Shown here one piece after another: positions 31,419 through 38,047 of a stretch of DNA of 64,000 nucleotides; position 1 is the first letter of the stretch; each line of letters starts with the position of its first letter. A program made the position numbers and the translations under genes. Location: positions 154,584 to 218,583 of the forward strand of contig JAQURX010000001.1 of the NCBI GenBank assembly GCA_028715415.1. Reading direction: 5' to 3'. Under the pieces are notes generated by a model. That model was not told where the DNA came from, made no database searches, and saw only the letters and a list, made by a program, of their open reading frames with translations. The DNA comes from Candidatus Omnitrophota bacterium. Its GTDB lineage: Bacteria; Omnitrophota; Gorgyraeia; Gygaellales; Profunditerraquicolaceae.

Positions 31419-33092
31419 CTATGATTCTACAATTCTTAAGACTTCTTCAGGAGTAGTAACCCCTTGTTTAATTTTTTCAATACCAGCATCAAGCAGGGTT
31501 CTAAACCCAAGCTCTTTTGCTTTCTTTTTAATCTGGGCAGCCGATGCTTTATTAATGATTAATTCCTGGATTTCGTTAGTCATCATAAAAATTTCATATA
31601 TAGCTGTCCTGCCTTTAAACCCAATAAAATTGCAATTTTCACATCCCTTTCCGTGGAATATTTTAATTCCTTTTAAGAAATCAGGCAATGGTCCGGGGTC
31701 TTTGAATTCTTCTTTACAGGATGGGCAAATAATTCGTACAAGCCTTTGTGATATGAAAGCATTTACTGATGAAGCTACTAAGTAAGGTTCAATTCCAATG
31801 TCCAAAAGCCTTGTTGCCCCGCTTGCAGAATCATTGGTATGCAGGGTTGAGAAAATAAGATGCCCCGTTAAAGAGGTCCTGATTGAAAGCTCAGCTGTTT
31901 CAAGGTCTCTTACCTCTCCAACCATCATTATGTCGGGGTCATGCCGCAGGATACTGCGTAATGCGGTTGCGAATGTTAAGCCAATCTCTGGCCTGACTTG
32001 AATCTGCATAACTCCCGGAAGCTCGTATTCAATAGGATCTTCAATAGTAATAATTTTTACGGCATCTTTGTTAAGTTTACTAAGGCAGGTGTAGAGCGTT
32101 GTAGTCTTTCCGCTTCCCGTAGGCCCAGTTAGAAAAATGATTCCATGCGGTTTTTTCATCAAAATGTCAAATTTATTTTGATCTTCTGGCTCAAGGCCAA
32201 GATCGTCCATATTGAATAGTAAATGCACCGGTAGTATTCTTATGACGACATTTTCTCCGTATAGTGAAGGGATAATAGATATTCTTAAATCAACCTGTTT
32301 ATCTTGGACTTTTACGATTGCCCGGCCGTCTTGGGGAAGCCTTTTTTCTACTACATTTAAGTTTGAAAGTATCTTTATGCGTGAGACTACCGCTGTCTGT
32401 AAGTATTTTAGTTGTTCCGGTATGCGCATATCGTAAAGAACGCCGTCAATGCGGTATCTAACTCTTACTTTATCGCGGAAAGGCTCAATATGAATGTCGC
32501 TTGCGCGGGCTGAGATTGATTCAGATAATATTTGGTTTACAAGTTTAATTACTGAAGCGTCCTGTGCGGTTTTTTCGAGTTCTTCAACAGCTTCTTCTTT
32601 TGCTTGTGCGGTTTTTTGCTCTTGCATTGCGCTCTTGTCTTGAGTCAAGATTTCTTCAATAGTCTCAGCACCCAATCCATAATAGCGCCTTATTGAATCA
32701 AGGATTTCTTTTTCTGAAACAAGGACTCTTTCTATGTCAAAGCCAAGATGAAGTTTTAAATCTTCCATTGGCCAGACTGCCAAAGGATCAGAAATTGCTA
32801 TAGTTAGAAGATTATTTTTTAATTTAAGCGGCATAAATTTGTAATGCCAAACGAATTTAACGGGAACGGCTTTTATTACTTCAGGAGGAACTTTGGTATC
32901 TTTTAATGTTGGATAAAAGATTAGCCCAAGTTGTTCTGCGAGTGCTTCTAATAATTGAGACTGGCTTATGTAGCTTAAACGGATAAGCGTTTTTCCAATA
33001 ATTTCTCCGCTACGCTTGCTTTCTTTAAGCGCTGAGTCAAGCTGTTCTTTTGTAATTAATCCTTTTTGGACTAAGATTTCTCCTATCTTCAT
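31419..33092 (-). CDS. gspE: Type II secretion ATPase GspE
   Basis: N1 domain, Walker A ([10 protein letters not shown]), Asp/His boxes and tetracysteine zinc motif (CPSC...CENC). Its start ATG overlaps the atpD stop (ATGA). Confidence 0.9.
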
Positions 33093-34492
33093 TTTTCTTT
33101 CCTCGCATCTTCGATGGAGCCAATCATATAAAATTTATCATCTGGGACTGTGTCTACCCTTCCCGAGATTATCTGTTCACACCCGTTAATTGCTTCTTCC
33201 AGGGTAACATAAACTCCTTTTTGGCCGGTGTATAATTCTCCTGTAAAAAACGGCTGAGTAAGGAAATTTTGAAGCTTCCCGGCACGGTCAAAAATAATAC
33301 GTTCGTTCTTTGATAATTCTTCTTTGCCGATGATTGAAACAATCCTTTGCAGGTCCTGGTATTTTTGGAAATGCCGCATTATTTCTTGAGCAAGTTCAAA
33401 GTGCCTTTTTCCTACAACAGCAGGATCAATAAAACCGCTTGATGACTGCAATGGGTCAATTGCCGGATAAAGCCCGCGTTGGACATAATCTCTTGAAAGA
33501 ACAACAGTTGAACCTAAGTGGGAGAAGATTGCTACAACAGCAGGGTCAGTAAGGTCATCTGCCGGTACATAGATTGCTTCAACAGAAGTAATGGAAGCGC
33601 CTCCTGCTTGAGATCTGATTCTTTCATGGAATTCACTGATTTCGCTGGTTAGCGTTGGTTGATAGCCTGTTTCTGAGGGAATTCTTCCTAAGAGCGCTGA
33701 AAGCTCAGCTCCTGCCTGTGCGAAACGAAAGACATTATCAATAAAAAACAAAACTTCATTTCCTTTTTCAAGATAGTGTTCTGCTATGGCAACTCCGGTA
33801 TGCGCTGCTTCAAAACGAGCGCCGGGAGATTCATCCATCTGGCCAAAAACCATTATTGAACGCCTAAGAAGTTCTGTCCTTTCAAATTCATAATAAAGCT
33901 CGTTACCTTCCCTGATACGTTCTCCAACTCCGCTAAAAACGCAGGTTCCTTCGCGTTTGGTGATAACATTATGGATAATTTCAAGAATCAGGATTGTTTT
34001 GCCAAGGCCGGCACCTCCTAAGATCCCGGTTTTAGAACCTTTGACAAGAGGAGTTAGCAAGTCAATAGCTTTAATGCCGGTTTCCATGATTTCAAATTCC
34101 AGTTTGCTGTTTTCGTCAATCTCGATGTTTCTTTTTGAATCTTTAAAGTTATGAGTTGCGATAAAGTCTTTGCATTCAAGAGGCCCTTTCCTGTCTATTG
34201 GCTGGCCTAAGACATTTAAAACTCTCCCATAAAGGCTGTCTCCAACAGGGACAGTTAGGTTTTTACCCGAAGCAATACCCGCGGAGTTTCTTTTGATGCC
34301 ATAAGTAGGATTAAGCGCAATACATCTGCAGATATTCCCTTGCCTGTGTTCTACTACCTCTAAAACAATTTCTTTATCATCAAAAGTTTTTGTTTTAATT
34401 ACTTCGTAAATTGCAGGAAGAGATTCTTTATCAAATTGTACGTCTACAACTGAACCGGAAACCGAGATTATTTTCCCTTTTTTTTCGCTCAT
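33089..34492 (-). CDS. atpD: F1 ATP synthase beta subunit
   Basis: P-loop GGAGLGKT and the DELSEED-region equivalents. 467 aa. Confidence 0.9.
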
Positions 34493-35373
34493 TCTGCCTT
34501 TTGCCTTCCAAGTAGAATTTTGGAGGCGGAAATCTCTCTGATAATCTTATCTTTTAATGCGTGAATCTGGCGAAAATATTCTAAAGAAAGCTTATGCGTT
34601 AAAAAGTTTAATTCCTGAGTACTGCCTTCAAGATGCATGATTCTTGCGGCAAATTCCGATTGTTTTGCCGACCAGAAAATATCCTGTAGCTTGTATCCGC
34701 TCCATAAATCAATTACAGCTTCCAATACCCATCTATTATCAGGCTCAATTAAGACTTCATCAAGAAATATTTTTGAAAACTGCGCTTTCAGTGCTACATC
34801 GTCATTATTTAAATGTACTTCGGGAGTCCAGGGCAGGAATTTCATGGCTGTTACTCTTTGTAGCGTCAAGCTGACGAATTCCGGATAGACAATAATAATT
34901 CTGCCAATGTTTTTCCGATAACCATTTAATAGGTAATCTCTAACCTTAGTAACTTCTTCATATCTGACCTGATCAGTTACTCCGGGGAAGAATATAAATT
35001 TTTGATTTAAGTCTTCTAGGTATCTGGCGCCTCTTTCCCCAAGCACAACTATCTCATCATTCGGAGAATGTTTTTGATCCATTGTTTTATTGATAAGTAA
35101 GGTATTAAGCCCTCCTAAAAATCCTTCATCACTTGTAACTACCACGATTGTGCTTTTTAACTCTTTTCGTTCAAGCAGATACGGGTGCTTTACTTTCTTT
35201 TCCAGAAGAATTTTTATGCAAAGATTTATTTCTTTGGAGAATGTTTCATTAAATTTTTCTTTTTGCTGAAGCGTCCGGAATTGTATAGTTGCGGCAGTCT
35301 TTAAGACATCAATAATGTCGCCTAGCGTGCGTGAAACTTCAAAATCTTGCCTTAATTGTACTAAAGGTCTCAT
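34489..35373 (-). CDS. atpG: F1 ATP synthase gamma subunit
   Basis: Length and N/C-terminal coiled-coil helices. Position between atpA and atpD. Confidence 0.8.
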
Positions 35374-35382
35374 TTATTTTTT

Positions 35383-36877: not shown

Positions 36878-37597
36878 TTAACAGCCTTTTAGGTATGGTA
36901 TTGTTTTTTGTAATTTGTTCTTAAGGCTGCCATCAATAATGAATTCGCCTATCTGGATGATAATCCCTGCAATCAAATCAGGATTTATACTTTCTTCCAT
37001 GGTAATGTCCTGGCCTAATTTAATTGAGAGGGTATTTTTTAAACGCGATATTTCCTTTTCGTTTAATTTAAAACATGAAACGATTTTAATTTTATTTGAT
37101 TTTACGGTTATTCTTGTTTTGTCAAGGTTTTCTACTTCTTGGATAAGTTCATCAATTAGCTGATATTGCAATTGCTCATTATTTTTTCCGGTAAAAGCAA
37201 GCTTTAACATTTCCATTGAAAGCTCTAAGGCCTTGTTCTTTACGTCGGAAGCTATATTTTTGCGGATTCGTTCTATCTCATCATTCCCTTGAGTAAGTAA
37301 CTTTTGTTTTTCAAGCTTTGCATCTTCTTCTGCTTTCTGGCGCAAAGAATCACAAAGCAACCTTGCTTCATCAACGATTTTTTTGGAATCAGCCCTTGCT
37401 TTATCAAATTCCGCTAATTTTAATTTTCTTGCTTCTTCAAGTTCTTTTTTTACTTGAGCTTCTCTTGCCGATAGCTCAGCCTGTAGTTCTTTAAGCCGGG
37501 TTTCCGCGTAGCCAAGATGTTTTTTATAGAGGATCCTAAGTAAGAATAGCAATCCGAAAACAGCAGCTACTTGCAGGATAATTAATTGGATAATCAT
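36878..37597 (-). CDS. atpF: Fused Fo b / F1 delta (OSCP) subunit
   Basis: N-terminal TM helix and long coiled coil (b-like). C-terminal delta signature (INPDLIAGIIIQIGEFIIDGSLKNKL). Confidence 0.65.
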   Translation of the reverse strand: MIIQLIILQVAAVFGLLFLLRILYKKHLGYAETRLKELQAELSAREAQVKKELEEARKLKLAEFDKARADSKKIVDEARLLCDSLRQKAEEDAKLEKQKLLTQGNDEIERIRKNIASDVKNKALELSMEMLKLAFTGKNNEQLQYQLIDELIQEVENLDKTRITVKSNKIKIVSCFKLNEKEISRLKNTLSIKLGQDITMEESINPDLIAGIIIQIGEFIIDGSLKNKLQKTIPYLKGC

Positions 37598-37599
37598 AG

Positions 37600-37821
37600 T
37601 TATTTAAATAGGTTAAAAACAACCAAAAGTGCAATAATAGCAATTGCTTCAGCAAAAATAAACGCGATAATCATTGAGATGAGGATTTTTGGGGCTGCTG
37701 AGGGGTTTCTCCCTACAGCTTTTACTGCAGCATAACCGATAATGCCAATTACAGCCGCGGGCCCAAGTGTGCTTAAAAACATGATTAAGGCAATCGTGAA
37801 ATTACGCATATTCCTCCACAA
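37600..37821 (-). CDS. atpE: Fo ATP synthase c subunit
   Basis: Two-helix hairpin with the conserved carboxylate (FIFAEAIAII) and GxGxGxG-like N-helix packing. Confidence 0.8.
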   Translation of the reverse strand: MWRNMRNFTIALIMFLSTLGPAAVIGIIGYAAVKAVGRNPSAAPKILISMIIAFIFAEAIAIIALLVVFNLFK

Positions 37822-38047
37822 GTATTGTTAAATCGTTTCTTGACATTTTAGCAACGCCATATTTTATCATTATACGATTTTCTTTAAGAGGATCTAGTCT
37901 TAGCGTAACAAACCCGCTTCTTAGACGGCATAAAAAAGGCTGATGGAAATCTAAAACTGTAAGCTCTCCGTCTTCTCCGGGCAAGACAGCTTCTTTTATA
38001 TTTCCCTCAAAAATGATTTTTCTTGTATCCATTAACGAAACATTCAT
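37802..38047 (-). CDS. atpC: F1 epsilon subunit, N-terminal beta-sandwich only (no C-terminal helical hairpin)
   Basis: AVLPGEDGELTVLDFHQPFLCRLRSGFVTL matches the epsilon beta-sandwich motifs. 81 aa. It is the first gene of the operon. Confidence 0.6.
   Translation of the reverse strand: MNVSLMDTRKIIFEGNIKEAVLPGEDGELTVLDFHQPFLCRLRSGFVTLRLDPLKENRIMIKYGVAKMSRNDLTILVEEYA

Follow-up and report, generated by a model that had tools for sequence, protein, structure and literature searches.

Subunit anatomy and genomic setting of an F-type ATPase gene set embedded in a secretion array of Omnitrophota

Among described systems, the closest to the locus studied here are the F-type ATPase/type IV pilus loci that Seymour et al. 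(2023, Nat Microbiol; PMC10066038) reported across the Omnitrophota, so the association as such is already known. That paper describes a non-respiratory, Omnitrophota-specific clade of F-type α subunits. Both systems occur together on 66 Omnitrophota contigs, and in 57 of these they are no more than 10 kb apart, with cases in every class; these are termed 'symbiotic' F-type ATPase/type IVa pilus (T4aP) loci. The loci are defined there by the phylogeny of α and β only and are called type-2/3-like and T4aP. A study of 176 complete genomes (bioRxiv 10.64898/2026.06.07.730766) lists α and β in 125 genomes and γ in 30, according to KOfam, and reports most genomes to be without a complete F1Fo; V/A-type ATPase subunits are given for 70-99% of the Gorgyraeia outside the order Pluralincolimonadales. 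Type II secretion-like loci adjoining giant genes were described by West-Roberts et al. (2023). The locus described here lies in a stretch of 64,000 nucleotides (the window) of contig JAQURX010000001.1 from a Candidatus Omnitrophota bacterium, which carries six F-type ATPase genes on its minus strand, from 38047 to 33089, in the order ε-c-b/δ-α-γ-β.

The window locus is one of the 'symbiotic' loci of Seymour et al. It belongs to Omnitrophota, the β protein being identical to an NCBI protein from a metagenome-assembled genome of Candidatus Omnitrophica. A type IV pilus-family cluster is found less than 10 kb from its F-type α and β genes (β even overlaps gspE), and its α subunit falls in a phylum-specific clade in a neighbour-joining tree. 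It differs in its pseudopilins, which resemble those of type II secretion systems and include a GspG that passes the NCBIfam cutoff (153 bits vs 89). A keyword search of the accessible text of the three papers gave no mention of an a-less composition, an E-like stalk, loss of the α H1 helix, a constant β-GspE junction, an invariant c glutamate or a riboswitch, and an adjoining giant adhesin was not found by keyword search of the accessible parts of PMC10066038 and its supplements. The ATPase/secretion linkage is thus published; the subunit anatomy appears to be undescribed. With modest confidence, and on the basis of sequence, we favour the view that the ATPase does not serve as the ATP synthase of the cell but, as an accessory motor or energiser, uses ATP to power a secretion/adhesin machine. 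An accessory set is indicated because its embedding in the secretion cluster is conserved, and this is also the answer we give to the question, raised in an earlier note on this DNA, whether the genes are a divergent or accessory set or the housekeeping enzyme.

Subunit anatomy and the search for an a subunit

The gene order and coordinates given in the earlier note were borne out by a Pfam and open reading frame (ORF) check (Table 1), as was its description of ε as a protein of 81 amino acids consisting of the β-sandwich alone. Besides the nearly complete Pfam match, ε gives 57.6 bits with TIGR01216 (cutoff 67) over profile positions 2-80 of 130; because this match stops at position 80, the C-terminal helices are lacking. 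The ε orthologues have 76-100 amino acids and none of them possesses these helices. The c subunit scores 25 bits against the canonical NCBIfam model TIGR01260 (cutoff 44). Conservation within the cluster is highest for this protein, at 69% mean pairwise identity, and its membrane glutamate and RNP loop are invariant in all 18 sequences. Its start is most likely the ATG at 37809, which is found 5 nucleotides after a GGAGGA and yields 69 amino acids as in the orthologues; a mechanical ORF list places the start at a TTG at 37821.

The fusion of b and δ in one protein, also claimed earlier, is confirmed, but the δ part is not a full one. Only its C-terminal half is present (OSCP profile positions 81-167 of 172) and the N-terminal δ domain is absent. 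The b part comprises a transmembrane helix and a long helix. Sequence matches to PDB entries cover E. coli b residues 11-155 and δ residues 88-177, and the protein aligns over the full length of TIGR03321, the model for the long b subunit of N-ATPases. An AlphaFold model (predicted local distance difference test score, pLDDT, 85.6) has helices at residues 2-134 and 138-156 followed by an α/β domain at 169-238. Foldseek matched this domain to the C-terminal domains of δ/OSCP proteins at 1.3-2.7 Å, and the whole chain to the mycobacterial b-δ protein, V-ATPase subunit E and FliH (5b0o_F).

The α subunit passes, in addition to TIGR00962, the model NF009884 (579 vs cutoff 554). It starts ca. 15-20 residues late as compared to canonical subunits, PDB alignments beginning at chain residues 22-31, and the H1 helix that binds the N-terminal δ domain is therefore missing. 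The paired loss of α H1 and the N-terminal δ domain would be explained if, as the stalk model suggests, the globular domain of the stalk binds the α crown directly, in the way that V-type E binds B. Changes specific to the clade are also seen at the non-catalytic site of α, where Gln is replaced by Gly at residue 185 and 'KHAVAYRQ' by 'KHAWIYRQ'.

At the position of the arginine finger, α has Lys339 (codon 35851-35853), and a Lys is found here in 14 of 15 close relatives. Lysine at the F1 α arginine finger strongly slows hydrolysis and does not abolish rotation. The general importance of the arginine finger has been reviewed (PMC5380711). Together with the lack of a C-terminal ε domain, the usual finger Lys suggests that the regulation and speed typical of ATP synthases have been lost. 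As a defining signature of the group the finger Lys was rejected, since loci L013 and L084 and one of two paralogues in L017 have Arg, and, among the 150 nearest cluster representatives, 16 likewise carry Lys.

The divergent γ subunit has terminal helices that are conserved across orthologues. The β subunit, for which more than 100 Omnitrophota orthologues with 66-81% identity were found, retains the P-loop, the catalytic Glu/Arg motif and the adenine-binding motif according to its translation and alignment. Of the subunits, α and β score above the canonical NCBIfam cutoffs, whereas γ, ε, c, b and δ all remain below them.

An a subunit was sought in the 64-kb window and in 22 related loci, using Pfam, the a motif, a check for unannotated ORFs with multiple transmembrane segments and a purpose-built hidden Markov model (HMM). 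This HMM was constructed from 23 canonical a subunits and gave 220-327 bits with control a subunits from other phyla. The claim that the window has no a-subunit gene stood up to both Pfam scans, which found none among ORFs of at least 110 amino acids, and the HMM, which had no match when all six frames were translated (best E 0.16). The 22 related loci showed no a motif, no unannotated multi-transmembrane ORF and no HMM match. That an a-like partner is truly absent from the whole genome we only infer. Published KEGG Orthology tables were considered as proof of a missing a and rejected, as they were legible for only two genomes and KOfam also misses c, b and γ subunits that are present here.

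These results bear on two rival explanations. The main one is that the genes encode an ordinary proton-coupled F1Fo ATP synthase/ATPase with its a gene elsewhere, the position of gspE reflecting a conserved gene order or shared regulation and not a shared machine. Split atp operons occur in other bacteria. This would fit with α and β passing the canonical equivalog cutoffs, with the intact catalytic motifs of β, with the retention of b and c and with the invariant Glu and RNP loop of the latter; the searches covered the window and the 22 related loci, and an a gene may lie elsewhere in the genome. Against it, the N-terminal δ domain, α H1 and the C-terminal ε domain have all been lost and Lys is usual at the finger position, and in one published genome table α and β occur without K02108 but with V-type subunits. 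Taking the gene neighbourhood discussed below into account as well, we consider this explanation unlikely.

According to the second rival, the complex is a dedicated ATP-driven ion pump that works with an a-like partner encoded elsewhere or with another membrane protein, and the local membrane potential so formed helps a fermentative cell to secrete or to assemble the pseudopilus. Type II secretion requires both ATP and membrane potential. An invariant ion-binding Glu in c would be in agreement with such a pump, and the tight packing of the genes suggests co-expression with the secretion genes. Against it, no a-like gene is present in any locus examined, there is no evidence of a substitute ion channel, and V/A-type ATPases able to do the job are reported in most Gorgyraeia (bioRxiv 10.64898/2026.06.07.730766). 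We regard a dedicated pump as improbable.

Conservation of the gene set and of the β-GspE junction

The TGA stop codon of β overlaps the ATG of the GspE gene as ATGA (33092-33089), as had been noticed earlier, so that the β gene is physically coupled to gspE; a GAGGAA is located 6 nucleotides 5' of this ATG. It had been considered that gspE might instead have its own start further downstream. This is ruled out, because the c-di-GMP (cyclic dimeric guanosine monophosphate) binding motif NF053729, which is of the MshE type and scores 64 bits vs a cutoff of 38, begins at GspE residue 2, and the ATG in the overlap is thus the true start. An MshEN-GspE gene follows directly 3' of β in 14 of 15 loci. 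The spacing in the relatives ranges from 4 to 199 nucleotides, the 4-nucleotide overlap being particular to this genome.

A scan of species-representative genomes with α yielded 17 loci of the secretion-linked type, the remaining loci having canonical α subunits with ca. 45% identity. In loci from about 15 Omnitrophota species the order is giant gene, 275-amino-acid protein, (MA peptidase), ε, c, b-δ, α, γ, β, GspE, GspF, PilMN, PilO and pseudopilins, and no locus of sufficient length departs from it. More distant lineages, found via the stalk protein, have the ATPase genes in the orders c-ε-bδ-γ-α-β, α-α-ε-c-bδ-γ-β or bδ-Avd-c-α-γ-β, and in none of these reshuffled lineages does the set comprise a or a separate δ. 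The atypical composition is not peculiar to the window contig: the a-less set with short ε and fused stalk was found again in 22 related loci. The 22 secretion-linked α sequences form one clade, joined only by two unlabelled cluster representatives, in the neighbour-joining tree, which was calculated without bootstrap support and without Mycoplasma sequences; this suggests a single origin.

The β-GspE junction has survived although the ATPase genes were reshuffled repeatedly, which would be difficult to account for had co-expression not been selected for. Together with the remodelled stator, the preserved junction provides the strongest argument against the rival explanations.

A third possibility is that the genes are the non-functional remnant of a decaying ATP synthase operon from which atpB was lost. 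A missing a, truncated ε and δ, and small subunits below their family cutoffs are what a remnant might show. On the other hand, all six genes are intact across species, with 38-73% identity to the window copies and no frameshifts, the set was retained through several rearrangements, and all six genes are under purifying selection. Two loci had appeared to be decayed. In L001 (CP070797.1, a 1.5-Mb genome) α seemed truncated and ε, c and b-δ seemed to be lacking, and in L085 β seemed split; in both cases the break is a run of N (at ca. 8250-8350, where it interrupts α, and at ca. 10200, where it mimics a broken gene), and both were rejected as cases of decay. A decaying remnant is very unlikely.

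Several other observations were made on the related loci. Two tandem α paralogues precede ε-c-bδ-γ-β-GspE in L017 (9899-12908) and L085 (4390-7300), which represent a deeper lineage; those of L017 have Lys and Arg, respectively, at the finger position, which may mean a head with two kinds of α. In L086 an Avd-like gene (bAvd / 23S_rRNA_IVP; 954-1319), typical of diversity-generating retroelements, is located between b-δ and c. Contigs L005, L016, L003, L009 and L012, which are labelled as Woesearchaeota, Parcubacteria or Planctomycetes, carry the Omnitrophota-type cluster with 64-72% α identity and are probably mis-binned or mis-labelled Omnitrophota.

The gene array, its leader and a possible function

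The ATPase genes are part of a longer array which runs, from 5' to 3', from AAA_22, 215-amino-acid protein, secretin and TPR genes through a leader, a RAYT-like gene, the giant gene, the 275-amino-acid protein and the MA peptidase to the ATPase and GspE to GspG genes (Table 1). The earlier statement that ε comes first holds among the ATPase genes only; co-directional genes lie 5' of it with gaps of at most 55 nucleotides. From ε to GspG every gap is at most 10 nucleotides or the genes overlap, with ATGA overlaps at both the γ/β and the β/GspE junctions, and no strong terminator-like site was detected on the minus strand of this stretch.

Table 1. Coordinates of the features in the window (aa, amino acids).
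Feature	Position	Strand	Basis
Upstream secretion genes: AAA_22 ATPase, 215-aa protein, secretin (GspD/PilQ family), three TPR proteins	55018..60594	-	Pfam, NCBIfam
Array leader	54452..54630	-	Promoter-like site 54630-54602, c-di-GMP-I riboswitch aptamer 54579-54497, terminator-like hairpin with T9 54476-54452
Giant secreted protein, 4513 aa, putative adhesin	39800..53341	-	Pfam: Kelch repeats, DUF2341, two Laminin_G_3
275-aa signal-peptide protein and Peptidase_MA_2 protein	38102..39788	-	Pfam for the peptidase; positions conserved across related loci
F1 ε, 81 aa, β-sandwich domain only	37802..38047	-	Pfam PF02823 (ATP-synt_DE_N), residues 1-79, profile length 80
Fo c subunit, 69 aa, GRNP loop and membrane glutamate (FAEAIA)	37600..37809	-	Pfam PF00137
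Peripheral stalk b/δ fusion, 239 aa	36878..37597	-	Pfam ATP-synt_B, residues 8-130, and OSCP, residues 144-231
F1 α, 494 aa	35383..36867	-	TIGR00962, 577 bits (cutoff 484), match from profile position 23
F1 γ, 294 aa, divergent	34489..35373	-	Pfam PF00231, 102 bits; TIGR01146, 80 bits vs cutoff 194
F1 β, 467 aa	33089..34492	-	TIGR01039, 556 bits (cutoff 463)
GspE/PilB-family secretion ATPase with N-terminal MshEN c-di-GMP-binding domain	31419..33092	-	Pfam T2SSE and MshEN
Rest of type II secretion-like set	25970..31414	-	Pfam; GspF, PilM-PilN fusion (GspL-like), PilO/GspM-like, two N-methyl pseudopilins, GspK-like, GspG

In the secretion set, the GspE and PilB models score equally on the window ATPase, both below cutoff, and for GspF, GspM, GspK and the secretin the best NCBIfam matches are likewise below their cutoffs. 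The PilM-PilN fusion occupies the place of GspL in this type II secretion-like set, and no GspC or prepilin peptidase was found in the cluster with Pfam and NCBIfam. Directly 3' of GspG (23290-25936, minus strand) a 166-amino-acid fragment with HisKA only, LexA and a polymerase of the DinB/ImpB family are encoded, which seem unrelated to the secretion array.

The 275-amino-acid protein (38961-39788, minus strand) has a signal peptide, a C-terminal membrane helix and an acidic tail, and Pfam gives no family match for it. An alignment with its relatives (43-59% identity to the window copy) showed a strongly conserved N-terminal region (NPSKEQ...DLEIAYDTQQGSYY) followed by a less conserved stretch. 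Eleven related loci extend far enough to show the DNA 5' of its gene, and in each of them a giant ORF immediately precedes the gene. The RAYT-like protein of 335 amino acids (53391-54398, minus strand) is encoded between the riboswitch and the giant gene. Its tyrosine-transposase domain scores 77 bits vs a cutoff of 80, and after it come a hydrophobic segment and a tail rich in K and E; a homologue is located inside the cluster of L003 (1421-2092).

The leader, which precedes both the RAYT-like and the giant gene, contains a riboswitch that matches Rfam RF01051 over the full model length (66.1 bits, gathering score 35, E 1e-10), and its promoter-like and terminator-like sites are the best-scoring ones of the region. 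Other features related to c-di-GMP are the MshEN domain of GspE, PilZ genes nearby and a GGDEF gene in the related loci L002 and L084. Judging from these sequence features, the whole array is probably under c-di-GMP control.

The function that we favour, that of an accessory motor or energiser, can be outlined as follows. The genes would provide a catalytically competent F1 head (α3β3-γ-ε), a c-ring and a single membrane-anchored stalk resembling E or FliH, with no a encoded alongside. This ATPase would be expressed within one long, probably c-di-GMP-controlled unit that also encodes the Kelch/LamG adhesin and the type II secretion/pilus-like machine, with β, in this genome, translationally coupled to the MshE-type GspE ATPase. 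The complex might then hydrolyse ATP to drive the surface machine, in parallel to the F1-like motors of Mycoplasma with their giant surface proteins and to FliI-FliJ-FliH. Both the direction of catalysis, i.e. hydrolysis, and the physical coupling of the ATPase to the secretion machine are what we infer for such an arrangement.

Several points weigh against this view. The rival explanations draw their strongest support from the invariant c-ring carboxylate: together with the RNP loop it is as expected if ions are still translocated, for which an a-like partner would be needed. Both α and β pass curated cutoffs for ordinary ATP synthases, and the Lys at the finger is not universal, L013, L084 and one L017 paralogue being the exceptions. 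Co-transcription from the riboswitch through the ATPase genes, over ca. 28.6 kb, is suggested by gene spacing only. Finally, absences derived from KOfam are weak evidence, because c, b and γ subunits that are demonstrably present here fall under such thresholds.

If the complex indeed works without a, it would be a rotary ATPase that retains a c-ring but serves a purpose different from chemiosmotic coupling, and it would be tied to a secretion/pilus system although the latter has an ATPase of its own. This would bear on the evolutionary re-use of rotary motors and on the way in which ultra-small, possibly predatory Omnitrophota attach to and attack their hosts. Experimental handles are offered by the E-like stalk, the lost α H1 and N-terminal δ domain, the invariant c Glu, the frequent finger Lys, the β-GspE junction and the c-di-GMP leader.

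Comparison with known rotary ATPases

Compared with the canonical F1Fo enzymes (atpIBEFHAGDC), the window set shares α and β as recognized by curated models, recognizable γ, ε, c and b subunits, the catalytic β residues and the c carboxylate. It differs in the absence of a from the locus, in the lack of the N-terminal δ domain, α H1 and the C-terminal ε domain, in the usual Lys at the finger and in its position inside a secretion operon.

The N-type ATPases described by Dibrova et al. (2010; PMC2881411) are similar in having no separate δ and a long b with a δ-like C-terminus, and they are typically the second rotary ATPase in a genome, which we count as a further likeness. They have, however, a fixed gene order atpDCQRBEFAG with a, AtpQ, AtpR and a Na+-binding c, as opposed to ε-c-bδ-α-γ-β in the window, where the cluster contains neither extra small membrane ORFs nor an a subunit. 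The N-ATPase models TIGR03324, 03305, 03321 and 03323 are missed by wide margins (538 vs 750, 508 vs 752, 39 vs 225 and 24 vs 282). Membership of the N-type, which the earlier note had raised, was rejected on these scores, on gene order and on the lack of AtpQ, AtpR and a.

Mycoplasma Type 2 (the gliding G1-ATPase) and Type 3 (MIB-MIP) systems also devote an extra F1-type motor to a surface machine, giant proteins being among the components of the latter, and their α subunit is without H1 (PMC11864180, PMC3369863). Their GliD protein is thought to be derived from a b-δ fusion (PMC11864180; PMC3369863), which recalls the stalk of the window. The Mycoplasma clusters possess no c and no membrane-anchored b, include unrelated membrane proteins and have kept the arginine finger, whereas the window encodes c and an anchored b-δ. 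Scores of the window α/β with the MMOB1660/1670 and MSC_0619/0618 models (426 vs 600, 419 vs 850, 331 vs 520 and 405 vs 570) and the presence of c and b led us to reject the membership of types 2/3 that is suggested in PMC10066038. The functional analogy with the Mycoplasma motors is attractive.

The FliI-FliJ-FliH system of type III secretion and flagellar export likewise combines an F1 relative with an export machine, and FliH has the layout of the stalk, a b-like helix followed by a δ-like globular domain. FliI is, however, a homohexamer without a c-ring, whereas the window encodes a heterohexameric F1 and a c-ring beside a type II/type IV pilus-family system with its own hexameric ATPase. 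The same stalk architecture, a long helix and then a globular domain resembling the C-terminal domain of δ, is found in subunit E of V-type ATPases. If the complex is truly without a, a tentative and, in our opinion, rather doubtful proposal is that F-type motors were adapted to surface machines a third time, independently of the type III secretion ATPase and of the Mycoplasma motors: an ATP-driven rotor of γ, ε and c-ring, held by an E-like membrane stalk, would be coupled mechanically or energetically to a type II secretion/pilus-like platform that deploys the giant adhesin under the control of c-di-GMP.

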